DNA of 22,986 bases from Candidatus Heimdallarchaeota archaeon (GCA_019057375.1 DXJF01000128.1:1-22986); one strand, 5' to 3'. Numbered from the stretch's first letter, positions 2,430 to 22,986 are shown. Notes: generated from the letters alone by a model not told the origin. A program made the numbers and translations.

Positions 2430-3437
2430 CTACGACCTTCTTTTTTTTCTAATGTAAATCAAACCTGAAAGTAGAGTAATAGCAGCTAATATTGACATGA
2501 TTGAGAAAGGAGTTTTTTCAATTGAGATATAGACTTCCAAATCATTAATCTCAAATAAGCTGTCTACTAAAAATATGAAAATATCACCAAGAGCTTGTTC
2601 TCCTTCAATCCATTCAATAGAGCTAAAATCAAACTCGAAATTTTGTATTATTGTTCCAAGAGGTGTACCAAAAAGAAAAGCTGTTTTAAAACCAATCAGT
2701 GATAATTTAACATTGGAAAAATCTAAGGTTATATTACTTAGAAGTGTATTAAATGTGGGACTTTTATCTTCAATAGCTATTTCAGTAAAATAGATATCAT
2801 CAGAATCAGTCCATGATAGCTCTTCACCTAAAACTATTACATTCAATCTAATTGTTCCTTTCAGTAGAACAATAGGAGTAAGTTCTAGTCCAACCGATTG
2901 TATCTCTGGTAATTCAGGAATCTCAATATCATTTACTGTAAAGAGGATAGGGCTGAAATTTATGGGAATCGTGATATTTTCGCCCAATAAGGTCTCAAAA
3001 TCAGCAAATGATTCACTTTCACCTTCCATCACATCAATATAAACAGGTCCAGTACTGGGAGTTACTATAATTATTGTACCATTTAATCCGAGAGTAAAAT
3101 TTCCTGGATTACTTCCTATTTGTAACCCAAATTCTGTAGTGCCATCTTTGACATCCTTGTTCAAGTATGAAGTAAAATTAAGTGGTACATGCATATTAGT
3201 GTTAAAAGATAGTCTTGGTGCAATTGCATATCCCAATGTGTCATTTGCAATATTAAAGAATAAATTTATATTATAATCTTTAGTGAAATTTATTAAACTA
3301 GAAGAAGTAAACCAATCTTCTATATTTTCAACTGTATCCTTCTGAAATTCAGCTGCAACATCACTATTTAGTGATTGAAAACTAATACTGATTAGAATAG
3401 TTAACGTGATTATAGTAAATATTTGTTTCTTCTTCAT
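2430..3437 (-). CDS. Secreted, C-terminally anchored acidic surface (glyco)protein with a PGF-CTERM-like sorting tail
   Basis: Start reassigned to ATG 3437 (MKKKQIFTIITLTILISISF..., signal peptide). C-terminus KTPF-SIMSILAAITLLSGLIYI-RKKRRS. Eight N-x-S/T sequons. Confidence 0.75.
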   Translation of the reverse strand: MKKKQIFTIITLTILISISFQSLNSDVAAEFQKDTVENIEDWFTSSSLINFTKDYNINLFFNIANDTLGYAIAPRLSFNTNMHVPLNFTSYLNKDVKDGTTEFGLQIGSNPGNFTLGLNGTIIIVTPSTGPVYIDVMEGESESFADFETLLGENITIPINFSPILFTVNDIEIPELPEIQSVGLELTPIVLLKGTIRLNVIVLGEELSWTDSDDIYFTEIAIEDKSPTFNTLLSNITLDFSNVKLSLIGFKTAFLFGTPLGTIIQNFEFDFSSIEWIEGEQALGDIFIFLVDSLFEINDLEVYISIEKTPFSIMSILAAITLLSGLIYIRKKRRS

Positions 3438-3543
3438 TCTCTTCAAAATAATAATGGGAGCATAATCTATAAAAGCTTCGCATTTACAAAAATTGGTTGG
3501 AAAACCCAAAAGAATTTAATAGAACATACTTTAATAAAAAGAT

Positions 3544-4524
3544 ATGAATGAAAAAGCCATGGAAATGGAAGATAAAAGTCAACAAAGACGACTAATAAAA
3601 GAAAAAAAACAGAAAGAAAAAAAAGTAAAAGTCAGAGAAAAAACCTTTTGGCAAATTGTCTGGTCAGGAATACTTGTTTTTCTTAAAATTATCTGGAAAA
3701 TTATCAAATTCATTCTAAAATATATACTATTTCCATTCTGGATTACAGGAGCTTTAATGGTCAAATGGTATAAATTCTTGCGATTCAGAAGCGACGAACC
3801 TTTAACGAAAGAAGATAGAAATTTCCTCTCCTTAATCCCTCATACTTTCTTTATGATTGGATTAACAATTGTTCTATTTTATCTATTGTTCTACTTGGAT
3901 GTTTTCGAAGATACAAAAAATTTAATTGATCCAGGTTTTTGGGCATCTGTTGGCAGCTGGTTTGTTGATTTAGGTCAAGGAATCTACTGGTTACTAGATG
4001 TTATATTTGTTAAGTTCCTTTGGGAAATGATTGTTCTACCATTCGCTGGAATTCTCCAACAGCACCAATGGGTTTCAGCTGCTGTTCTTCTAGCTGTTGT
4101 AATCGTTGGTGGAGGATTACTAATTCTACTGTATAATTTAATAAAGAAAGGAAAACTGATTATATGGTTGAAGAAAGTTTTTAGAGGATTAATTGACTGG
4201 GTTAAGAATACTCATCAGAAAGTAAAGGATTTTATTCTGAAGTATCTCATTGGCGAAAAGTATGTGAACTCTAGATCTAAGAATTTCTTCTGGACAAATG
4301 TTTTATTCCAACTAATAGTGACAGTAACTTTCTTTGTTTTCGCAATCTATATGGGAATCCAGAAATACTTCAACGATCCCATAGCTCCTTGGGGTGAAGG
4401 AGATGTTCTAAGATTCGCAGCTTATGCAGCAGCTATCTTATTCGTTGGTGTAGGAATATTTGCTACTTGGTTCTTTACAATCGTACATGGTGTTTCTTCA
4501 GATCCTCCAGAAAAAACTGAATAA
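3544..4524 (+). CDS. Hypothetical polytopic membrane protein with a Lys-rich N-terminus
   Basis: 326-aa ORF with roughly 6-7 hydrophobic segments separated by basic loops. No family recognised. Confidence 0.75.
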   Translation: MNEKAMEMEDKSQQRRLIKEKKQKEKKVKVREKTFWQIVWSGILVFLKIIWKIIKFILKYILFPFWITGALMVKWYKFLRFRSDEPLTKEDRNFLSLIPHTFFMIGLTIVLFYLLFYLDVFEDTKNLIDPGFWASVGSWFVDLGQGIYWLLDVIFVKFLWEMIVLPFAGILQQHQWVSAAVLLAVVIVGGGLLILLYNLIKKGKLIIWLKKVFRGLIDWVKNTHQKVKDFILKYLIGEKYVNSRSKNFFWTNVLFQLIVTVTFFVFAIYMGIQKYFNDPIAPWGEGDVLRFAAYAAAILFVGVGIFATWFFTIVHGVSSDPPEKTE

Positions 4525-5653: not shown

Positions 5654-6019
5654 CTACATCTCTTCTAGACTTTTTATCAAAGCAACTAAGGCTTTGTATA
5701 AACAATCTGAGCATTCTTTAGCATCAGGATCCATGAAAAGTAGAGTTTCTCTTGTGTTTTCATAGACTTTTTGAGGAATTGATCTACCTCTGAGCTCTAT
5801 TCTTTTCTTTTTAGTTGGACAATAAATTGCATTTTCATCATCCAAAACCACAGCGTTTAAACAAAATGTAGGGTTAGCAAACTCTTCCAAATCTGCAGTA
5901 AGAAGCTCATCAGGATCATAAAAAGAGACTAATAAGATCATTTCAAGCTCATCTTCAAGAATACAATAAGTAGTATATTCAATCTCTCTATGCATTGGAC
6001 AGGGTTGCATTATCCACAT
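5654..6019 (-). CDS. Small Cys-rich hypothetical protein (possible metal-binding)
   Basis: 121 aa with 6 Cys, including CPMH and CSDC. Abuts the gap stop convergently with a 2-nt gap. The true start could be ATG 6010. Confidence 0.6.
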   Translation of the reverse strand: MWIMQPCPMHREIEYTTYCILEDELEMILLVSFYDPDELLTADLEEFANPTFCLNAVVLDDENAIYCPTKKKRIELRGRSIPQKVYENTRETLLFMDPDAKECSDCLYKALVALIKSLEEM

Positions 6020-6114: not shown

Positions 6115-9100
6115 TTATTGTCTTATAGGGGCCCTACTTCTGAAATCATAGTAAATTTTGGTTATTTCCCTAACAATTTCTTCATTAAAGGTTACAATTA
6201 AAAGAGGATCTCCACTTGGAGCTTTGTGTCCTAAGAAACCTTCTTCTATACCATCTCTGGTTGCCATCATTACTGTTAGGTTTGGATCATCCTTTACAAC
6301 TACATTCCCCATCCCAAGCAATTTACTTAAGATAGTTTTATCTTCATCTGTATGAGCTGTTGTATTTGTTACAATTTCTAGTTTTCTGGCAAAGGTTTCA
6401 ATGAATTCAGAATCTATCCAATTTAGTCTTGGGCAGATTACTGTGGCAGAAGACTTTGTATTTCTCAATAGAGACATCATAGTTCCATTAACTTGTTCGT
6501 TACCTGTTACTATCCACATATCTTCAATTGGATTTGGTTCAATTCCTGATCCCAGTGATAAAACACTCTTGATTAATTTCATTGATTCCCCTGTTGCATC
6601 TAAAGCACCACCAATCTTATTTGGAATTGAACTTAGTGTTCCTGAAATACTAGTGTCTACATTTTCAATTTCTTGTTGAGTTCCTTTGATTATATTCTCT
6701 TTAAAACTCATAAGTTTAGAACTGTAATCATCTTTCTCAGTATCTACAATCTTTGAATCCTCTTGAGTTTCATTTAATTTTTCTGTTAGAGAATTCAAAT
6801 TGGAATCAAATAGGTCAGTTAAAGTTTTTTCTAGATTACTGAGGTCTGCATTAACTGCATCATTTCCGGAAGTTATAGCCTCTGTAAGAGCATCCTTTGT
6901 TCCTTGTATATTAGTTACCAAAGCAGATGAATTTGAATCTGAATTAGTAATAAAACTATTAACTTGATGAGACATGTTTAATTCATAATCATTCTTTTCT
7001 TTTTCAAACTCATTTTGAATTTCTGTGGCATTATTAACAAAGTCAGTCGTCATGCGTTCATAGGATTTCTCTAGATCTCTTTGAACGCTAGTAAACATTG
7101 AATCGATTTCTGTCTGTGCACCTACTTGAAATTCTTTTATGGAGGAGCCCAAATTAGTTGCAAATGAATCAGAGTCAGTTTTAACCCATTTTGGATAATT
7201 TGCGCCAAGCTTTTGAAGCTCTCCCTTAGTAATAGCAAGTGCTTCATCTAATAATGATGATTTCTCAGGAGAAACATTTAATTCTGCCAATACACCTTCA
7301 GTACCTTCAATAAACTGTTGGACTTCTTGCTCAATTAGATCATTAATCTCGGTTTCAACCTTTGCTGTTTGAGCACTATAGTTTTTAGCAGCCTCATCTA
7401 GAGTGACAGAAATGTCAGTATCAAGAGCCTCTTTCGCAGATTTAAATTCACTTTGCAAAGATTTCATTGTTACATCCATTGAGGAAGTAGCTTTGGTTAC
7501 TAATTTGGAATGATCATCGATGTTTGTCTTAAGTAATTCCTGAAGATTAGTTATTACTTCGATATTATTCTTCTTCATTACATCAAGAATTTCTTGTTTT
7601 GTTGTTTGCAGAGCTTCTAGACCGTCTTGAATTGTCAGATGAATTTCTGTTTGACCTTCATTATCTTCAGTTGAATCTGGAGCTTGGAGAAGTTCATCTA
7701 ATGAACCACTTATGGATTTAGTTATGTCCGAAAATGCCTTAGATTCAGCTCCTATTACATCAGCTAATGATTTAGTGCTTGTTCCTTGTAGCTCATTAAA
7801 TTGCTCTTCATAAGTGTTATAAGTTTCTTCAATAGTTCTTTTCATATCATCTGAAGATGCTGTAAATTGACTACTGATTTCACTCCTTGAAATGTCAAAT
7901 GATTGGCTGGTTTTTTGAAGGGTATCTGTTGTGAATCTTGCTAAATCTTCTAATCTTATATTCATTTTTTCAAATATCTCATTAGACAAAGAATTCATTG
8001 AATTTGTCAATGTTTGAATCATTTCCTCCATTTTAATTCCAACATTCTCCTTTACTAGCTCAATATCTCTATTCATACTTCCGATTAGTTGAGCCATACG
8101 TGGTCCCTCTTCTTTTCCAAATACTTTTTGAAGCTGTTTCTCATCTAATCCTTGAAATGCTTGGTTAATCACTTCAATTTTTGCAATTGATGATTTAAGC
8201 TGATCATCTAATTCTTGTAATCTTTCAAGGCTAGTTTGATAGTTAATCTGAACAACGTTAGGTACTTCATCCCTAACATCTCTTCCTCTTTTAGAAAATT
8301 CATCTGAAAAAACTTCAACATCAGATTTGAATTTGTTTTCCTTTTCAGTTATTAGATTTTGAATTGTTTCGTTGTTATCCTTAACGTTTTTCTCAATATT
8401 AGAAATAACAGTGGCTTTTAATTCATTAATATGAGAAGTAAAGTTCTCTTTGAATTCCTCATGTGAGATAGCAAACTTTTCTTTCCTCTCATTCAAAGCC
8501 TTTTCATATTTTTTAGTTGTTTTCGATAATTTATCTAAATACGCGTTAGTTGATTCTCTAAAAGCAGTCATTATGTCTTCTACAAATAGTTTGATTTGAT
8601 TACTTACATTTTCAATTGAAGAAGACAGATTTTCTTCAAACAGATTGAAACCAATTTCTATTCCTGAATTAAGTAAAGATAGTAGATTATCACTATTCTT
8701 TTTGAATTCTTTAAGATATGAGGCTAAATCATTACTCAGTTTAACTTTCATTTCCTCTGTTTTCGCTTCAGCTTGTGTAATTAAATCTCCCAGCTTTTCA
8801 ACAGAATCAACTTTAGTTTTATTCAGTAAATCAACAAACTGATTCTCATTCCCTCTCAAAATATTTACTGCTGTTTCTTTTGATTTATCAATTGAGGTTC
8901 TTATTCTGTCTGTTGTTGCGTCTTCAAGTTTTTTCAATTCATCATTTAATGAAATAAGAATCTGCTGTACTTTTACTTGATATTCGTCAAGCTTTTTCTC
9001 ATAGTTTGCGATAATTTTGTTTACTGTATCTGAAAGCTTCTTAGAGGAATCTCTCACAACTACGTTTGAATCTGCTGAGATCTTTTTAACAGCTTCATCA

Positions 9101-9888
9101 GTAACAGATATAATTACACCTTTTCGATCTGCTGCAGCTTCTATGAATTCCTGAAGCTGTACTGCTAAGCTTTCTTTTATCCCTCCAACTTTTTCAAGAA
9201 GAGCATCAAGTTGTATTTGAGTTCTATCATCATGCTCTTTTTGCAGAAAACCTAGTCTTTCCTCTATTTTTACTTTGAATGAATCATGATGTTCGCCTAT
9301 TTTGTGAATCGTAGAATCAAAAGAACTAAGAACATTCTCTTTTACTCTTTGAGCAGTTTTTGCAATAGCTTCACTGTTTGTCGCAGAAATATTGGAGGTT
9401 TCTGATTTTAGCCGTTCAATCATTTCAGCTGTTTCAGTTTTTCCTGATGAAACTACGTTTGTTAATGAATCCAAAAATTTAGTAGCAGTTGATGCAATTT
9501 CAGAGGCATGATCATCAACATTTTCTGTAATATTTACATGAAATGCTGATAATTGGGATCTAAAATTATTCATTGTTTTATTCCAATCTTCTTTTACATC
9601 ATCACTTAATGCTTTTAATTCAGTTTCTAGACGAATAGATACATCCTCTGTAAGCTTAATTTGTGGGGGGAGTGGAATGAAATATGAGGTTCCCTCTTGG
9701 TTTTTAGCTTTGATTTCTCTAATATATCCTTTGCCAGCTAAGCTATTTAGAGCACTTTGGATTGTATTTGTGGGGTGTTTGTAATATGTTTGAATTTGAC
9801 CGATGGTTCTATAACCATATTGAACAATAATTGAATAAACCTGAACTTCATCTTTCGATAAACCAATCTTTTCTAATGTTCCTTCCAT
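6115..9888 (-). CDS. Giant TrmB-like protein: N-terminal winged HTH, ~1040-aa largely hendecad helical rod, C-terminal TrmB effector/PLD-like domain
   Basis: Start likely ATG 9888 (GAAGTGA RBS, 5 nt spacing). N-terminus LEKIGLSKDEVQVYSII...SALNSLAGKGYI...YFIPLPP matches the TrmB wHTH pattern. The C-terminal ~137 aa (MWIVTGNEQV...ATVICP...LEIVT...MMATRDGIEEGFLG...NEEIVREI) match the layout of the TrmB C-terminal domain. 11-residue periodicity lies between them. Confidence 0.8.
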   Translation of the reverse strand: MEGTLEKIGLSKDEVQVYSIIVQYGYRTIGQIQTYYKHPTNTIQSALNSLAGKGYIREIKAKNQEGTSYFIPLPPQIKLTEDVSIRLETELKALSDDVKEDWNKTMNNFRSQLSAFHVNITENVDDHASEIASTATKFLDSLTNVVSSGKTETAEMIERLKSETSNISATNSEAIAKTAQRVKENVLSSFDSTIHKIGEHHDSFKVKIEERLGFLQKEHDDRTQIQLDALLEKVGGIKESLAVQLQEFIEAAADRKGVIISVTDEAVKKISADSNVVVRDSSKKLSDTVNKIIANYEKKLDEYQVKVQQILISLNDELKKLEDATTDRIRTSIDKSKETAVNILRGNENQFVDLLNKTKVDSVEKLGDLITQAEAKTEEMKVKLSNDLASYLKEFKKNSDNLLSLLNSGIEIGFNLFEENLSSSIENVSNQIKLFVEDIMTAFRESTNAYLDKLSKTTKKYEKALNERKEKFAISHEEFKENFTSHINELKATVISNIEKNVKDNNETIQNLITEKENKFKSDVEVFSDEFSKRGRDVRDEVPNVVQINYQTSLERLQELDDQLKSSIAKIEVINQAFQGLDEKQLQKVFGKEEGPRMAQLIGSMNRDIELVKENVGIKMEEMIQTLTNSMNSLSNEIFEKMNIRLEDLARFTTDTLQKTSQSFDISRSEISSQFTASSDDMKRTIEETYNTYEEQFNELQGTSTKSLADVIGAESKAFSDITKSISGSLDELLQAPDSTEDNEGQTEIHLTIQDGLEALQTTKQEILDVMKKNNIEVITNLQELLKTNIDDHSKLVTKATSSMDVTMKSLQSEFKSAKEALDTDISVTLDEAAKNYSAQTAKVETEINDLIEQEVQQFIEGTEGVLAELNVSPEKSSLLDEALAITKGELQKLGANYPKWVKTDSDSFATNLGSSIKEFQVGAQTEIDSMFTSVQRDLEKSYERMTTDFVNNATEIQNEFEKEKNDYELNMSHQVNSFITNSDSNSSALVTNIQGTKDALTEAITSGNDAVNADLSNLEKTLTDLFDSNLNSLTEKLNETQEDSKIVDTEKDDYSSKLMSFKENIIKGTQQEIENVDTSISGTLSSIPNKIGGALDATGESMKLIKSVLSLGSGIEPNPIEDMWIVTGNEQVNGTMMSLLRNTKSSATVICPRLNWIDSEFIETFARKLEIVTNTTAHTDEDKTILSKLLGMGNVVVKDDPNLTVMMATRDGIEEGFLGHKAPSGDPLLIVTFNEEIVREITKIYYDFRSRAPIRQ

Positions 9889-9902
9889 TTTAATCACTTC
9901 TT

Positions 9903-11351
9903 TTACAATTGATCTTTTATTGTTTCAAGATTCCTTTCTAGTCTTTCTAATCGACCTATGAGATCTTTTCTCAACTTTTCTGCTTGTTCTGCTTTTTTGA
10001 TATTGTCCTTTGCTTCAATTTCAAGATTAGCTACAGTCGAATCTTGTGTTTCAACAATCTTGCTTTTTGCATTCGAGGACATAGTTGAAATTTCAGCTAT
10101 AGTATCTTTTTGAGCTGAATCTATTCTTGAGGTAATTTGTTGACTTGTTCTTTCTAAGGAATCTTTTACATCAGTAATTTCCTTTTCAAGAATCGATATT
10201 CTTTCTTCTGCTGTTTTTGCAGCATTACCTTGTAGATTTTCAGATTTTTCAACAACGGTTGTTAAAATATTATCTAAATGGCTTTTAACATCGTCCTGTT
10301 CCCTTGACACAAAGGATTTTATTTCTTGCTTAATTGAATCTGATTGTTCAGAAAGAGTTGATAAAATTCCATCCACTTTATTGTTGAAATCCCCTTCAAG
10401 CTCTTTAAGTTCAGAACCATGTTCATTATATTGTTTATTTGTTAAATTATCATAAGATCCTAGCATTGATTCCTTAGATGAATTGAAATTTGACATAGCT
10501 ACTTCATTAACATCAATCATTCCAGTTTCATATTCTGCTAAAACGTCTTGTACTTTTGCAATTTCATCAACAAGATACTTGTCCATGGAATCGGTTACAT
10601 CAGATAATTCAGATTGAATTCTTTGAACTGCGTTATTAACAAGCTGTCCTAATTCACTTTTTATTCGATTAAAGCTTTCAAAGACAGATTCCATGTTTTC
10701 AGTTAACTTATCACCATATTCTGATCTTAAATGTTCTATAGATTCTTTCATGATGTTTTGAGCAATATTAATGTTAGATTCAATCTTTGCTCTCATATCT
10801 TCTGAATTGTTCTTGAAGGTTGAAAGATTATTTCCCTTTACAGTACTGACATCTTCTTTTACACTATCAATTGCTTTTCTAAAAGCATTGACTTGATTGT
10901 TTGCTAATCGTTCTAAATCTTGTTCATGGTTTGTAAGAGTGGTTCTTATTTTTTCACCAAATGAAGAAGAATACTCCACAAAATTGGTTCTTCCTTCGTC
11001 TAAAATAGAAGCAATAGATTCTTGTAGTTTAGATAATTCATTTTTTGTATTGTCTAACTTCGATATTACAGATTCTGATTGACTTTTAGTCCATTCATCA
11101 ATTAGTTTTTTATCTTCAGATACATTTGCTTCAATAATTTCATCTAATGACTGTCTATTTGTGTCAATTAAATTGCGTAAATTCTCATTCAAACCAATAA
11201 ACTTGTTTTGAACTAAAGTTGCTAGAATTTGATAAAATTGATGTAATTCCTTCAAGTTTTCTAGAGATTCTTTAAAATTTACAATCTCTCCATCTAAATT
11301 TTCAATTTCCCTTTTTACTTTTTCTAAATCTTTTGTTATTCTTTCTGACAT
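9903..11351 (-). CDS. All-helical hendecad-repeat (coiled-coil or apolipoprotein-like) protein
   Basis: Start likely ATG 11351 (AGGTGA RBS overlapping the upstream TAG). No Pro or Cys in the whole protein; 32 consecutive 11-mers. Confidence 0.8.
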   Translation of the reverse strand: MSERITKDLEKVKREIENLDGEIVNFKESLENLKELHQFYQILATLVQNKFIGLNENLRNLIDTNRQSLDEIIEANVSEDKKLIDEWTKSQSESVISKLDNTKNELSKLQESIASILDEGRTNFVEYSSSFGEKIRTTLTNHEQDLERLANNQVNAFRKAIDSVKEDVSTVKGNNLSTFKNNSEDMRAKIESNINIAQNIMKESIEHLRSEYGDKLTENMESVFESFNRIKSELGQLVNNAVQRIQSELSDVTDSMDKYLVDEIAKVQDVLAEYETGMIDVNEVAMSNFNSSKESMLGSYDNLTNKQYNEHGSELKELEGDFNNKVDGILSTLSEQSDSIKQEIKSFVSREQDDVKSHLDNILTTVVEKSENLQGNAAKTAEERISILEKEITDVKDSLERTSQQITSRIDSAQKDTIAEISTMSSNAKSKIVETQDSTVANLEIEAKDNIKKAEQAEKLRKDLIGRLERLERNLETIKDQL

Positions 11352-11360
11352 CTTACTCAC

Positions 11361-13124
11361 CTAAAAATCCAATTCTTTTTCGATATTTTCAATAGAAATT
11401 TCTTCTACTTCTTTTGGCTCAGGTTCATCTAAAGGAATCTGTATTTCCTCTTCTCTCCCGTAAATCATATTTGTAAAATAATTGTGATGTATGCTTTCCT
11501 TTTCAAACATCTCAACTGCTTTTTTCCTAATTCTTTCGAAGTTAGTTTTGTCCCCAATATTCTTATAACAATCAAGGCTTGATTTCAAGTAACCTCGTAT
11601 TGCGTATTCACTTTTTTCCACAGGCAGTGTTACTGATAGTTTTTCAAATTGATCTGCAGCTCTTGCATATGATCTATTTGCTTTAAGTTCTTCTTCAACT
11701 GCTTTGTAATAAGAGGCAGATTTTAGGTAAAGTCTAGCTGCAAAATAAAAGTTCTTTTCTTCGAATTCTCTTGCGATCTTTTCGCAGAATGCTCCTGCTT
11801 GCTCCAATTCATTAATTTGCTCAAATTGTTGAGTATTAATCAAAGTTAAATCATATGCCTTTTGATATATTTTTCTCTCAATACATATATTAGCGATTTT
11901 TTGAATTTTTGAAGCTACTGCAAAATCAGCAAGTCTGTCTCTAATTTTAACTGATAAGTTCCCGACTTTTTCTATAATCTTATCTGTTGGGGAGATGTAT
12001 TTACTCAAATCCTCTAGAATGGAATCAAGTGTAACCATCAGTGAGGTAAGGGGACTGAATAATCTCATTCGAAACTTCATTGCTGTTAATAGGGATTCTT
12101 GCACCAAACGAGCATGTGTTGAACCAATCCACAAAAAACCTTTTTCTTCAAGTGACTTGAGAGCTTCAAGGGGGACATATGCAGTTAATTGTTCAATCAA
12201 GAAAAGATTTTCATTGAATGAAGCCATTTCTGATAAGACAGACTCTTCTTCATCTGTTAGACTAAAGACCTTAGGAATATTTCTTTCAACAAAATCATCG
12301 ATTTCAAATCCAGATTTGATAAAGAAGTTACCTAAGTTTAGATCAAAGAAAGTTCTTTGACTATTATTAACAAGTTCTAAAATCCCTTTATTCACAAGTT
12401 GAGGTGCAATTCGCCGAAGATAAATCTCAGTATCTGAAACAGATAGAGGTTCTATACTAAAAATCTTTGAATTGTCTGTTAAATTCTTTTCATAGTCAAA
12501 ATCAAAAAGATATTGCTTTGTTAAAGCAGAGATAACTACAATGTTGTATCCTCTAATAGATATTTCCTTGATTATCGTTGAGAAGATTGGGTAAAATTCT
12601 TGAATATCCATCAATTTGAATAAATGAATATTATCTACAAAGAAATACAGAGTTGTTTGAGTCTCCTGTAGCTTTTGATTAACTTTATCTAGATTCTCGA
12701 AAAACAAATTGACATAAATCTCAGTATAGGTCTGGGAAGTTTGTTTCTTGATGTTCTCTTTGAGGGCAGGAAGATCATCACCTAATTTCTTTTTTCCCAC
12801 TTTTTCAAGAACTGAACGCCAAGCTGGAGATATTTCATCAATCATATTTTTCCATTCTTTGAAGAACCCTAGCAAATCTTTTTCTTCAGGAACTAAATCA
12901 AACATATGGAAAATATCTTTTCTTACTGATATAGAAGAAGATAATTTTCTTAAAAGAGAACTTTTTCCTGCTCCTTCATCACCAACTAGTAGTATGGAAT
13001 GAGTTTTTTTTCCTTCTTTCTTCATGTCTTCTTTAATCTGATTAAAGTCTTTGATAATATCTCTCAACCCATAAAAATCGTCAGGATTGCAAGGTAGGAA
13101 AAGGTTTGAATCTTGAGTACTCAT
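11361..13124 (-). CDS. P-loop ATPase (archaeal ATPase/STAND-like) with C-terminal TPR/alpha-SNAP-like helical repeats
   Basis: N-terminal PDDFYGL (compare P..F.GR), Walker A LLVGDEGAGKSS, Walker B-like YFFVDNIH, and C-terminal A..Y..AA-type repeats. GTGAGGT RBS at 13134-13128. Confidence 0.75.
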   Translation of the reverse strand: MSTQDSNLFLPCNPDDFYGLRDIIKDFNQIKEDMKKEGKKTHSILLVGDEGAGKSSLLRKLSSSISVRKDIFHMFDLVPEEKDLLGFFKEWKNMIDEISPAWRSVLEKVGKKKLGDDLPALKENIKKQTSQTYTEIYVNLFFENLDKVNQKLQETQTTLYFFVDNIHLFKLMDIQEFYPIFSTIIKEISIRGYNIVVISALTKQYLFDFDYEKNLTDNSKIFSIEPLSVSDTEIYLRRIAPQLVNKGILELVNNSQRTFFDLNLGNFFIKSGFEIDDFVERNIPKVFSLTDEEESVLSEMASFNENLFLIEQLTAYVPLEALKSLEEKGFLWIGSTHARLVQESLLTAMKFRMRLFSPLTSLMVTLDSILEDLSKYISPTDKIIEKVGNLSVKIRDRLADFAVASKIQKIANICIERKIYQKAYDLTLINTQQFEQINELEQAGAFCEKIAREFEEKNFYFAARLYLKSASYYKAVEEELKANRSYARAADQFEKLSVTLPVEKSEYAIRGYLKSSLDCYKNIGDKTNFERIRKKAVEMFEKESIHHNYFTNMIYGREEEIQIPLDEPEPKEVEEISIENIEKELDF

Positions 13125-13269: not shown

Positions 13270-13343
13270 GAAAACATTAAAAGTGTAAATGATAGATGTA
13301 GCATGACTCAAACGCAGAGGTGTAAATATGATAGGTGAACGTT

Positions 13344-13754
13344 TTGTTAAATCCAGCGGAACTGGAAAGCTTAGATTACTTAGAAGAAGGGATGGCCTTT
13401 GCTCAAGAGAGGATAAGGAAACTTGAAAAAGATAACTTATTTTTGTTTGATTTACTTAATCAGAGTTTAATCATTTTGTTTGATCAATTAAATGATAAAC
13501 AGAAAGGAATTTTCTTTGAAAGTTATAATCTAATAGAAAGAAGAAAAACATCTCTAAACCGTTTAGCAGAAAAAATTTCAACAAAGTTGGATATTTCCTT
13601 CTCGACAGCTAAATGGAATATAACTAAACTCAGAGATTTAGGCTTCTTTGAAACTATTGGTATGAGAGGTAACACAAAAACCACTCTAATATCAACAATT
13701 ATAGGTGACACACTTTATTCCACTCTAGGGCAAATCAAAAACAAAAATCGGTAA
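13344..13754 (+). CDS. Winged-HTH putative transcriptional regulator
   Basis: C-terminal SLNRLAEKIS...ISFSTAKWNITKLRDLGFFE is HTH-plus-wing-like, and the N-terminus is helical. Start is probably TTG 13344 (GGTGA at 13334-13338); GTG 13335 or ATG 13392 are alternatives. Confidence 0.65.
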   Translation: MLNPAELESLDYLEEGMAFAQERIRKLEKDNLFLFDLLNQSLIILFDQLNDKQKGIFFESYNLIERRKTSLNRLAEKISTKLDISFSTAKWNITKLRDLGFFETIGMRGNTKTTLISTIIGDTLYSTLGQIKNKNR

Positions 13755-16462: not shown

Positions 16463-17278
16463 TTATTTTGCTTGTTTGTGTCGGAAGAACACTTTGTCAA
16501 TATTGCTAAAAAGGAAGAAAGATCCTGAAATCATTGGAATGAACAAAGTTATCACTATTGTTATTAAGAAAATGAAAGTAGCACCAGTTATCCAAGTAAA
16601 TAAAATATCCTTCTCATCTAATGCATTTGTTAGAAATACTAAAACTGTAGCATATACTACATTAAGAATTACATCTAATATGAAAGAAAAAGCTACCCAT
16701 TTCATAATACTCTTCCTATCACTTGTAAATTTCCTTACAATTTTCCCAAGAATATATCCTATTAAAACAGCAAATGGAATACCAAGTAAGAACGAAATAC
16801 CTCGGATTTGTAGAAAGTCTAAGATATTTACTGGAAAAGGAATGATATTCAAGTTCTGATCAGTTATATCTATTGAAGCTAATGCAATAAGGAAGTTCAA
16901 AGTATAGTGAATGAGAGACACTAATACTGTGAAAAGTGAAATGAACAAAAGTTTTTGTCCAAAATTGTATTTCTTATCTGCAGAATCTATGATTAAAATA
17001 TCTTTTTCTTTTGTTTTTTTCTTTTTTGCGACTGGTTTGTCAATTTTGTCAAAATCAGGTAACTTAGGGGAAGATACTTCTTCTTCAACAGCTTCTAGCT
17101 CAGGAGAAATGGGAGCAGGAATTTCAACAGGTGGAGCTACAGCGATTTCAGGAGGAGCTTCAACCTCTTGAGTTACAACTTCAGCTTTTAATACATCTGT
17201 ATCACAGAAGACACACTTTTTAGTCCCTTTTATATTTAGATTTCCACATTCTGGACAACGAACAAATTCTTCATTCAT
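16463..17278 (-). CDS. Zinc-ribbon membrane protein
   Basis: N-terminal CPECG-N9-CVFC, Pro/Glu-rich linker, then ~4 TM helices. Lies 3 nt upstream of the DUF61 gene. Confidence 0.75.
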   Translation of the reverse strand: MNEEFVRCPECGNLNIKGTKKCVFCDTDVLKAEVVTQEVEAPPEIAVAPPVEIPAPISPELEAVEEEVSSPKLPDFDKIDKPVAKKKKTKEKDILIIDSADKKYNFGQKLLFISLFTVLVSLIHYTLNFLIALASIDITDQNLNIIPFPVNILDFLQIRGISFLLGIPFAVLIGYILGKIVRKFTSDRKSIMKWVAFSFILDVILNVVYATVLVFLTNALDEKDILFTWITGATFIFLITIVITLFIPMISGSFFLFSNIDKVFFRHKQAK

Positions 17279-21285: not shown

Positions 21286-22821
21286 TCACTTAAGCCATTG
21301 ACCTAAGGGCTGTAGACACTTGTATAGTCTTAGCGGGTGGAAGTCATCTGTTAGCAAATCCCATATGCTGTTGAACTTTGTTTTCAAAGCATATTGAATT
21401 AACCTCTTTCCTATGTTCTTTGCTCCGTTCAGATCAGCATCCAATTCATAGTTACAATTGTGGCAATTGAACTGTCCTTGTCCTGTACGGGTAGTGTTTT
21501 TAGAATTACACTTCGAACATGTTTTCGAGGTCCAACTTTCTCCTATTGCTACCACTCGATGGGATTCAAATCCATAACGATTAAGCTTGTGCTTAAGTTT
21601 AGTTATAAAGAAGCGATAACACCACTTATGCAGTTTTCTTCTTAAGGATTTATTTCCGCTACCTCGAGGGTGACTTTTCCGAATATTCTTAGGATAGCCA
21701 ACAGATACAAACAGATTGTAGCTATTCTTCAACTGGAGAATGAAATCAACTAGTTGGTTAACTGCATAACCCAGTTCCTGTTTTGTAACAGAGCGAAGTC
21801 TTCTACGTAATTGGTAGAGTTTAGCATTAAGCTGTTTAGTAGGTTGACCATTGTTGTTTTGAGTATCCAACAACCTTTGAATAGACTTAATCCGGTTATC
21901 TAGTTGCCACATTCTAGACTGTCTTTCCTTATTAACGATGAAGCAGAGTTCATCCATAATTACTTTCCCAGAAGGGGTAAGTAACACCGCAACAGCTGTC
22001 TTCTTAATTCCTAGATCAACGCCCAACACTGCTGGGGGGTGAGTAGATTGATAAAGAGGGACAGCATATTGGAGGGTGAAATGAGCCCACCACTGTTGTT
22101 CTTTGGATTTGTATACTAGTTCCAATGTTTTTATCTTCTCTAGTATCAGCTTCTTCTCGTGATAAGGTGAATATGCCAAAGGTAGCATCAGTCTCTTATG
22201 GTATCTTCTACCAGAACGTTTCGAATTAAGAGAATCCCTTAACTCTAGCCAAAGTTTAGCTTCAGTATTCTCAGGAGTGGGAATAACTTGAAACCGGTCT
22301 TTACCTATTGATCCTTTGAACTGTATTCGTGGGACCTTTTTCTTGAAACGTGGTCTATTCAGCTCCTTTTCAGAAAGCTCTTGTTGTGTTTTCCAGCATT
22401 CATAAGTCCAGATAGCTTTATCTCTACATTCGATGAATTCATCGTGGGAACAGCGAGGATAACGTTTCTTCAAGTCGTGAGGAACAGATGTTCGTAGTTT
22501 GTGTTGCGTTTTTCTAGATGTAGTTAAAGTCAATTTGTCCAAGAAGGCTTTGTCGACTTTTCCATCTTTTCGCAGTATTTTCTCCTCGTTGTGGTAGATG
22601 ATTCGAAGGTAGTCTTTGATGATTCTGGAGTCTCGGTTGTTAATTAGTCTCAACCTGTCACACTCTTGAGCAGTCATCAGTTCTGTCTTTATCCTGAGAG
22701 GGACAACTTCATAACCAGTAACTAATGGTGCTTGGTGTGTGCTTGTAACAACTCTATCTTTCTCATCTTTCTTGTTTTCACTTACTGATTGTTTTTGTTT
22801 ATTATTTGCTTTGTATGTCAT
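21286..22821 (-). CDS. tnpB: TnpB/Cas12f-like RNA-guided nuclease (~511 aa) with rearranged RuvC site
   Basis: Start reassigned to ATG 22821 (AGGAAGTGA RBS). RuvC-I VLGVDLG, bridge helix, RuvC-II position VSVGYP, GESWTSKTCSKC...CHNC zinc finger, and RuvC-III DADLNGAKNI. Confidence 0.88.
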   Translation of the reverse strand: MTYKANNKQKQSVSENKKDEKDRVVTSTHQAPLVTGYEVVPLRIKTELMTAQECDRLRLINNRDSRIIKDYLRIIYHNEEKILRKDGKVDKAFLDKLTLTTSRKTQHKLRTSVPHDLKKRYPRCSHDEFIECRDKAIWTYECWKTQQELSEKELNRPRFKKKVPRIQFKGSIGKDRFQVIPTPENTEAKLWLELRDSLNSKRSGRRYHKRLMLPLAYSPYHEKKLILEKIKTLELVYKSKEQQWWAHFTLQYAVPLYQSTHPPAVLGVDLGIKKTAVAVLLTPSGKVIMDELCFIVNKERQSRMWQLDNRIKSIQRLLDTQNNNGQPTKQLNAKLYQLRRRLRSVTKQELGYAVNQLVDFILQLKNSYNLFVSVGYPKNIRKSHPRGSGNKSLRRKLHKWCYRFFITKLKHKLNRYGFESHRVVAIGESWTSKTCSKCNSKNTTRTGQGQFNCHNCNYELDADLNGAKNIGKRLIQYALKTKFNSIWDLLTDDFHPLRLYKCLQPLGQWLK

Positions 22822-22889
22822 AAATTTCACTTCCTGAAATTGTTTCTTTGGAATAAACATGGAAATCCTTTTTGAAAAGTCATAATCGA

Positions 22890-22934
22890 TGGTTCCTCTT
22901 CTAGTCTTAATATTTGAAACCAGTAGAGGAACCA
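22890..22934. repeat. 10-bp perfect inverted repeat TGGTTCCTCT / AGAGGAACCA (candidate left-end hairpin)
   Basis: Arms at 22890-22899 and 22925-22934 with a 25-nt loop, ~70 bp upstream of the tnpB start. Confidence 0.6.
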
Positions 22935-22986
22935 CCGGTTGTACTACGTGTAAAATTGCTTCAGATTCTCAAAATGGAAATCCTGA

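Follow-up and report, generated by a model that had tools for sequence, protein, structure and literature searches.

A TrmBL2-type protein with two length-matched hendecad arms, probably a fold-back rod, in a conserved three-gene module of Asgard archaea

A globular head split by a long fold-back coiled coil is the hallmark of SMC (structural maintenance of chromosomes), Rad50 and MukB, the universal chromosome organisers. TrmBL2 (TK0471/PF0496; PDB 5bqt, 5bpd, 5bpi and 5box) and TrmB (PDB 3qph and 2f5t), both of Thermococcales, are built in the order winged helix, single coiled-coil helix of ~30 residues and PLD-like domain. Proteins of the TrmB family measure 264-360 amino acids (aa) (PMC4158304), and TrmBL2 is described as a chromatin protein and SMC roadblock (PMC4158304, PMC11840125). 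Here we report on a protein termed P0001, encoded in a window of 22,986 nucleotides (nt) from a Candidatus Heimdallarchaeota archaeon (GCA_019057375.1 DXJF01000128.1:1-22986; the window is the whole stretch of DNA that was analysed), a low-GC (~32%) Heimdall-group Asgard archaeon. P0001 shares this domain order but has 1257 aa, and in place of the single helix it carries two stretches of hendecad helix, each of 496 residues, joined by a conserved turn. We consider it likely that P0001 is a TrmBL2-type protein whose coiled-coil helix has been expanded into two 496-residue hendecad arms that fold back at the turn KVFGKEEGP into a rod; a literature search found no description of TrmB-headed hendecad fold-back proteins.

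The open reading frame (ORF) is stop-free over 6115..9897 (-), and an in-frame GTG at 9897 would extend the protein to 1260 aa. The homologues, however, start (MExTLEKIGL) at the position of the ATG at 9888, on which basis the gene boundary at 9888 assigned by the preliminary description is correct; residues are nevertheless numbered here from the GTG at 9897. The close homologues are all from Candidatus Heimdallarchaeota metagenome-assembled genomes. The parts of the gene are as follows.

6115..9888 (-): whole gene P0001, a TrmB-headed, probable fold-back rod; 1257 aa from the ATG at 9888, 1260 aa from the GTG at 9897.
9652..9888 (-): N-terminal TrmB-type winged helix-turn-helix, residues 4-82, from PF01978, the alignment to 3qph and charge.
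8155..9651 (-): arm 1, residues 83-581, from hydrophobicity spectrum, register, AlphaFold2 model and homologue alignment.
8266..9651 (-): 42 unbroken hendecads in one register with an a/d/e/h core, residues 83-544, from periodicity and 11-mer parsing.
8260..8286 (-): near-invariant GRDxRDEVP near the end of arm 1, residues 538-546, from homologue alignment.
8110..8154 (-): turn or tip, residues 582-596 (LQKVFGKEEGP region), from the AlphaFold2 model and the motif in homologues.
6622..8109 (-): arm 2, residues 597-1092, with 11/3 periodicity in 4-5 blocks, from spectrum, phase and charge.
6529..6621 (-): neck or linker between arm 2 and the C-domain, residues 1093-1123, where model confidence is low (predicted local distance difference test, pLDDT, 40-52).
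6118..6528 (-): C-terminal PLD-like alpha/beta domain of TrmBL2/TrmB type, residues 1124-1260, from AlphaFold2 model, Foldseek and invariant columns.

Both ends of P0001 are TrmB-like, as had been claimed for them earlier. At the N-terminus, Pfam PF01978 (TrmB) covers residues 8-75 with 40.6 bits (cut-off 25.6), and a phmmer search of the PDB aligns it with residues 10-102 of Pyrococcus furiosus TrmB (3qph, E 7.8e-4). This alignment extends into the coiled-coil helix alpha5 of TrmB, so that the first turns of arm 1 are homologous to that helix. The winged helix is basic (pI 9.2) and closes with the motif IPLPPQI. The C-domain had no sequence match in the PDB and was identified by fold search alone: in an AlphaFold2 model of the last 168 residues (25 homologues) the stretch 6118-6528, correctly delimited by the preliminary description, is confidently folded (pLDDT 83), and its best Foldseek match is TrmBL2 5bqt (E 2.5e-8), with TrmB 3qph (2.6e-6) and 2f5t (1e-5) as well as PLD-fold proteins also found. 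The domain holds an invariant motif RDGxEEG...G and lacks the HKD motif. It is rare: among 1.84 billion representatives it was met in 50 clusters, and almost always at the C-terminal end of proteins of 1000-1800 aa. The sugar-binding second subdomain is absent: P0001 ends after the PLD-like domain and has no Regulator_TrmB match in Pfam. TrmBL2 likewise does without it (PMC4158304), which together with the best match to TrmBL2 makes the head of P0001 one of TrmBL2 type.

With a TrmB winged helix and the first (PLD-like) effector subdomain in place, P0001 could be seen as an ordinary effector-responsive TrmB regulator with a long neutral linker. We regard this as scarcely credible. The residues with which TrmB reads DNA are Tyr50 and Asp51 (PMC4158304, Table 1), and where the TrmB recognition helix has RVYDT the alignment to 3qph places TIQSA in P0001, so that Tyr50/Asp51 are replaced by Gln47/Ser48; this recognition pair is thus lost along with the sugar-binding subdomain. 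Nor is the linker neutral: as set out below, it is constrained by matched arms, a conserved hinge motif and a register held over 42 repeats, and the gene shares a conserved operon with those for an ATPase and a second rod.

Both arms are periodic in sequence. P0001 is free of proline from P78 to P546, and residues 83-544 make exactly 42 consecutive 11-mers, a parsing from the preliminary description that we could reproduce. Large hydrophobic residues occupy position 1 in 71-79%, position 4 in 50-55%, position 5 in 38-40% and position 8 in 67-81% of the repeats, so the hydrophobic core proposed at positions 1, 4 and 8 gains position 5 as well; at the seven others they make up 2-19%. The hydrophobicity spectrum of arm 1 peaks at 3.67 with a power of 525 (best of 200 shuffles 122; power at 3.5 only 5), which is the predicted hendecad value and not the heptad one, and the phase does not change along the entire arm. 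Arm 2 (residues 600-1123) peaks at 3.66 with a power of 212 (shuffle maximum 95), with phase jumps or proline breaks near P740, P877/P902, ~970 and ~1040. Both arms are highly charged and strongly acidic, with a net charge of -48 in arm 2.

Tetrabrachion and the Scy and FilP proteins of Streptomyces are coiled coils of the same right-handed hendecad type. In the E/G peripheral stalk of A/V-ATPases, 11/3 periodicity with an a/d/e/h core makes nearly straight, stiff rods (PMC3293630, PMC6131620). These known hendecad coiled coils are parallel assemblies of separate chains, without a DNA-binding head and, except for Scy, far shorter than the arms of P0001. The 11/3 periodicity is also that of apolipoproteins, and P0001 matches Pfam Apolipoprotein A1/A4/E at E 5e-18 and ApoLp-III at 37.6 bits, from which one might read the 11-mers as amphipathic helices that coat lipid or membrane, of the apolipoprotein, perilipin or LEA kind. 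This too is most improbable. The Apolipoprotein (PF01442) score of 65.9 bits lies below its cut-off of 90, hydrophobic residues form a narrow stripe (a, d, e and h only) on highly charged arms, and matched arms with TrmB end domains would be left unaccounted for. The apolipoprotein matches, as well as those to ZorA discussed below, arise because the 11-mer periodicity is held in common.

Between the arms lies the Pro/Gly break that had been noted as VPNV...FGKEEGPRM, and its residues P546, G594, G598 and P599 are indeed present. The FGKxEG motif of the turn is kept in distant homologues. In an AlphaFold2 model of residues 396-745 (42 sequences; pLDDT 84), one helix (397-581) runs continuously through P546, a turn with a short helix (586-593) takes up residues 582-596, and a second helix covers 597-737. 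The first 45 residues of the model, which would be partnerless in this construct, are the least confident part of the first helix. Placing the turn at 582-596 gives arms of 86-581 and 597-1092, 496 aa each, in place of the ~460 and ~510 aa proposed earlier. Arm 2 is more interrupted than arm 1, as had been remarked (its periodicity falls into 4-5 blocks). The model predicts a long two-helix antiparallel hairpin and not a compact bundle, in agreement with the rod geometry first proposed. Residues 43-349 of the model superpose on the chemoreceptor hairpin 2ch7_B (Z 12.9, 303 aligned residues), and the model also superposes on Smc arm fragments (5xg2, Z 10.9; 5nnv, Z 10.4), all of them long antiparallel two-helix structures. 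The Foldseek E-values were weak (best 7e-3) and the superpositions came from VIA re-alignment; since a Z of ~13 is common for long helical models, we take the hinge model as supporting and not decisive.

The evidence that carries the pairing of the arms is their length in the family as a whole. Giant TrmB-headed ORFs were gathered from 151 genomes of the phylum and two protein libraries, and their N-domain, hinge and C-domain were located by hidden Markov models (HMMs). The comparison of the arms covers the subfamilies with a detectable hinge motif, and thus leaves out those of 1029-1141, 1304-1315, 1916 and 2092 aa. With the first-pass hinge HMM, the lengths of arm 1 and arm 2 correlate at r 0.993 with a slope of 0.995 (n=38), and with the iterated HMM the slope is 1.00 (n=62), from arms of 170/210 aa in a 727-aa protein to 730/760 in one of 1816 aa. 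The first-pass figures are given too because the iterated HMM, in its fourth iteration, also matched generic hendecad segments (second-best hits at E 1e-20 and below); the distant hinge matches were inspected by eye, in which the motif was visible, and L036, with no hinge motif, was dropped as false. Measured from the turn, arm 2 minus arm 1 is -1.2 +/- 6.6 residues in 56 homologues of 727-1816 aa, with arms of 224-784 aa. Phylogenetically independent contrasts of the arm lengths give r 0.99 and a slope of 0.93 (0 of 10,000 permutations as high), and both arms change in the same sign in 22 of the 22 largest contrasts.

Single insertions tell the same. Syntenic orthologues of ~1470 aa are longer than P0001 by two insertions, one of +106 aa behind residue 443 and one of about +104 aa close to residue 732. 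In one of them, P0024, the insertions take up residues 441-546 and about 836-939. Summed end to end, these give 1380-1382, or twice the turn position (about 1384), so a hairpin would bring the two inserts face to face. Equal and co-varying arm lengths imply that arm 1 pairs antiparallel with arm 2, and this applies in cis and in trans alike. The antiparallel fold-back originally suggested from the near-equal arms of a single protein is thereby supported, as length equality holds across the family and the insertions oppose each other.

Two other ways of arranging such chains have to be weighed against these data. TrmB-family proteins are dimeric or form larger oligomers (PMC4158304), and long hendecads can pair in parallel and right-handed as in the A/V-ATPase peripheral stalk (PMC3293630), so two copies of P0001 might run in parallel as a coiled coil that bends at a flexible joint in its middle, in the manner of myosin or long tethering factors, with the DNA-binding and PLD-like ends ~150 nm apart. 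Such a dimer would, however, give no reason for the joint to stay exactly midway, nor for the matched length changes in 22/22 contrasts or for facing insertions, and we hold it to be very unlikely. The second arrangement pairs two extended chains antiparallel in trans, arm 1 of each on arm 2 of the other, into a ~150-nm rod that would link two segments of DNA; the turns would lie next to one another at its centre, and each end would have a composite head made of the winged helix of one chain and the PLD-like domain of the other. The equality of the arms and the opposed insertions fit this equally well. Moreover, the coiled-coil helices of two TrmB monomers pair antiparallel (Phe81/Ile91', Phe84/Leu88') in a domain-swapped dimer (PMC4158304), and it is to this antiparallel dimer helix that the start of arm 1 is homologous. 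The FGKxEG Gly/Pro turn at the exact midpoint is nevertheless needed by a fold-back and not by an extended chain, and this conserved position favours the hairpin; the monomer model, too, folds back at pLDDT 84, though a monomer has no alternative. Pairing in trans thus seems rather unlikely to us, and folding back within one chain the better account.

A complex prediction of residues 1-300 with 860-1260 (score 0.16, mark 0.32) counts neither way on whether the head halves and proximal arms meet.

A fold-back P0001 would resemble SMC, Rad50 and MukB in geometry only: a globular head split by a long antiparallel coiled coil whose strands stay matched in length through evolution. It has no ABC ATPase head, as neither SMC_N nor another P-loop domain matches the protein and its termini are a winged helix-turn-helix and a PLD-like domain, so the statement that it lacks SMC heads is true of P0001 itself; its conserved operon does, however, supply a P-loop ATPase as a protein of its own. 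It also lacks an SMC hinge or zinc hook (no PF06470 match), its fold-back being a 15-residue turn with a short helix. SMC-type arms are mostly heptad while those of P0001 are hendecad, and the ATPase here is a separate protein of STAND type. The cytoplasmic hairpins of chemoreceptors (2ch7, 1qu7), which gave the best superposition of the hinge model, have no sequence relation to P0001 and, unlike it, are heptad-based, ~20-26 nm long, membrane-anchored signalling modules. Chemoreceptor hairpins vary in length via matched insertions in both strands. Compared with TrmBL2 and TrmB, P0001 further differs in being encoded with an ATPase and a second rod, and in that Tyr50/Asp51 are not kept.

These partners lie on the same strand in the order P0003, P0002 and, last, P0001.

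11361..13124 (-): P0003, 587-aa STAND-type P-loop NTPase, from AAA_16 above cut-off and helical TPR/SNAP-like repeats.
9903..11360 (-): P0002, 485-aa proline-free rod protein, from register analysis, with orthologues between ATPase and giant gene in seven families.
5654..6019 (-): P0004, small acidic Cys-containing protein of 121 aa without a Pfam family, downstream of P0001.

The P0003 stop ends at 11361 and the GTG of P0002 is at 11360, a gap of zero, and the P0002 stop is separated from the P0001 ATG at 9888 by 14 nt. At least seven Asgard families have these three genes closely packed in this order, between flanking genes that are unrelated, and the three thus form a conserved module. P0003 has a Walker A motif GDEGAGKS and a Walker B-like FFVDN followed by the helical TPR/SNAP-like repeats, and AAA_16 matches it at 33.4 bits (cut-off 32.6). 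Among its homologues, AAA_16 is detected in 15/15, nSTAND1 in 4/15, SNAP in 3/15 and TPR in 2/15; its look-alikes in a structure atlas, which serve as a lead only, are NB-ARC or AAA_16 proteins with TPR. P0002 keeps a single hendecad register from about residue 23 to 440, is heptad-like only at its ends (1-22 and 441-485) and has no Pro/Gly hinge. Its relatives fall into two size classes, of 425-485 aa and about 768 aa, and alignment to the ~768-aa forms, at only 15-17% identity, is too poor to place insertions and deletions. Because the length of the partner rod (425-485 or ~768 aa) is independent of arm length (396-760), P0002 is not a full-length third strand along the arms. P0004 is kept next to the giant gene solely within the window's own family. 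The 95-nt spacer between P0001 and P0004 contains an oligo-T run and a TATA-like box; P0004 probably has its own promoter, and its membership of the module is doubtful.

The neighbours of the module are housekeeping genes (GAPDH, an aminotransferase, two M24 peptidases, DnaJ and DnaK). The family of P0001 has matches in 13/13 genomes of the window's family and in 80/151 of the phylum, a vertical, core-like distribution that argues for a housekeeping role over mobile defence. A defence system was considered and rejected, as PADLOC gave only ZorA-tail and LmuB coiled-coil matches and the gene is vertical among housekeeping genes. The same holds for ZorA of the Zorya system, of which only parts of the tail match the arms (NCBIfam 24.5 bits, cut-off 250; PADLOC model positions 303-735), with no MotA/ExbB-type membrane domain. 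Elsewhere in the window, a TnpB/Cas12f-like ORF of 549 aa (21286-22935 (-)) matches a Cas12f1-like TNB domain, and no Pfam family matches four further ORFs of 139-359 aa at E 0.001 (2430-3509 (-), 3544-4524 (+), 13335-13754 (+) and 16463-17278 (-)); the related locus L001 has size-matched ORFs in the same positions as these four.

Stand-alone relatives without the ATPase form size classes of 714-775, 1028-1141, 1913 and 2092 aa. The window's own genome has two more TrmB-headed ORFs, of 749 and 775 aa (G000:C100 near 9531-9710; G000:C102 near 9201-9395), which are probably members of the ~765-aa size class (L047, L048) of the same superfamily. A distant member of 1534 aa, P0030 (L002, contig SDBT01009813.1 and its ENA twin), has neither ATPase nor partner rod beside its gene, and the longer L002 contig holds a second apolipoprotein-like coiled-coil ORF of >721 aa, ~6 kb from P0030.

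Given the likeness in geometry, one may ask whether the module stands in for SMC. A search for SMC_hinge (PF06470) gave no match in the window's genome, in 9 further genomes of its genus and in 6 from three sister families, and sister genera gave weak SMC_hinge hits only, in ORFs of ~1000 aa. An ORF of 996 aa in the genome from which the window comes shows SMC_N matches in split form (G000:C50:953-3742), and it may be that SMC is divergent or reduced in this lineage. That the module replaces SMC is not supported, as it coexists with canonical SMC in three genomes (G038, G041 and G006) and its own genome has this 996-aa ORF of SMC_N type.

How would such a protein work? From the co-variation and the model, arm 1 would pair antiparallel with arm 2, in the simplest case inside a single chain, and the paired arms would make a nearly straight, stiff rod of ~73 nm (496 x 0.148 nm). 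At one end of this rod the PLD-like domain would join the winged helix in a TrmBL2-like head, and the conserved tip would be at the other. More tentatively, the head may bind DNA or chromatin via its basic winged helix, unlike the sequence-specific TrmB; the acidity of the arms and the lost TrmB recognition residues argue against ordinary operator binding. With similarly low confidence, and in line with the chromatin or bridging role that the preliminary description had put forward as plausible, the rod may act as a spacer of fixed length, a tether or a bridge, and the ATPase P0003 might switch its assembly with the partner rod P0002. Taken together, the three genes could encode an Asgard chromosome-handling machine, in which a DNA-anchored 73-nm rod engages P0002 through its tip or surface and the STAND ATPase with SNAP/TPR-like repeats switches the bundle, for SMC-independent tethering, spacing or segregation of DNA; we put this forward as a possibility that is somewhat improbable as it stands.

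Several points weigh against the picture of a DNA-bound fold-back rod that works with its operon partners. The 4-5 breaks of register in arm 2, opposite an arm 1 that holds a single register, exclude a two-stranded coiled coil of perfect regularity over the full length. The length of P0002 does not track that of the arms, and distant paralogue classes occur without the ATPase. DNA binding is a prediction from sequence, made in the face of the change of Tyr50/Asp51 to Gln/Ser and of two strongly acidic arms. As for the model, the hairpin shape is read from superpositions with a Z of about 13, a value that long helical models often reach, and a monomer model cannot choose between pairing in cis and in trans.

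Arm lengths in this family change only by matched steps, which makes the length of the rod a selected property. If P0001 folds back as we propose, an SMC-like geometry would have arisen independently on a TrmBL2-type scaffold, with hendecad packing and a separately encoded ATPase, and the family would offer a clean natural case in which to learn how hendecad rods of antiparallel strands are put together. Should the head bind DNA, P0001 would represent a novel class of proteins with a long-range architectural role, in the lineage that gave rise to eukaryotes.

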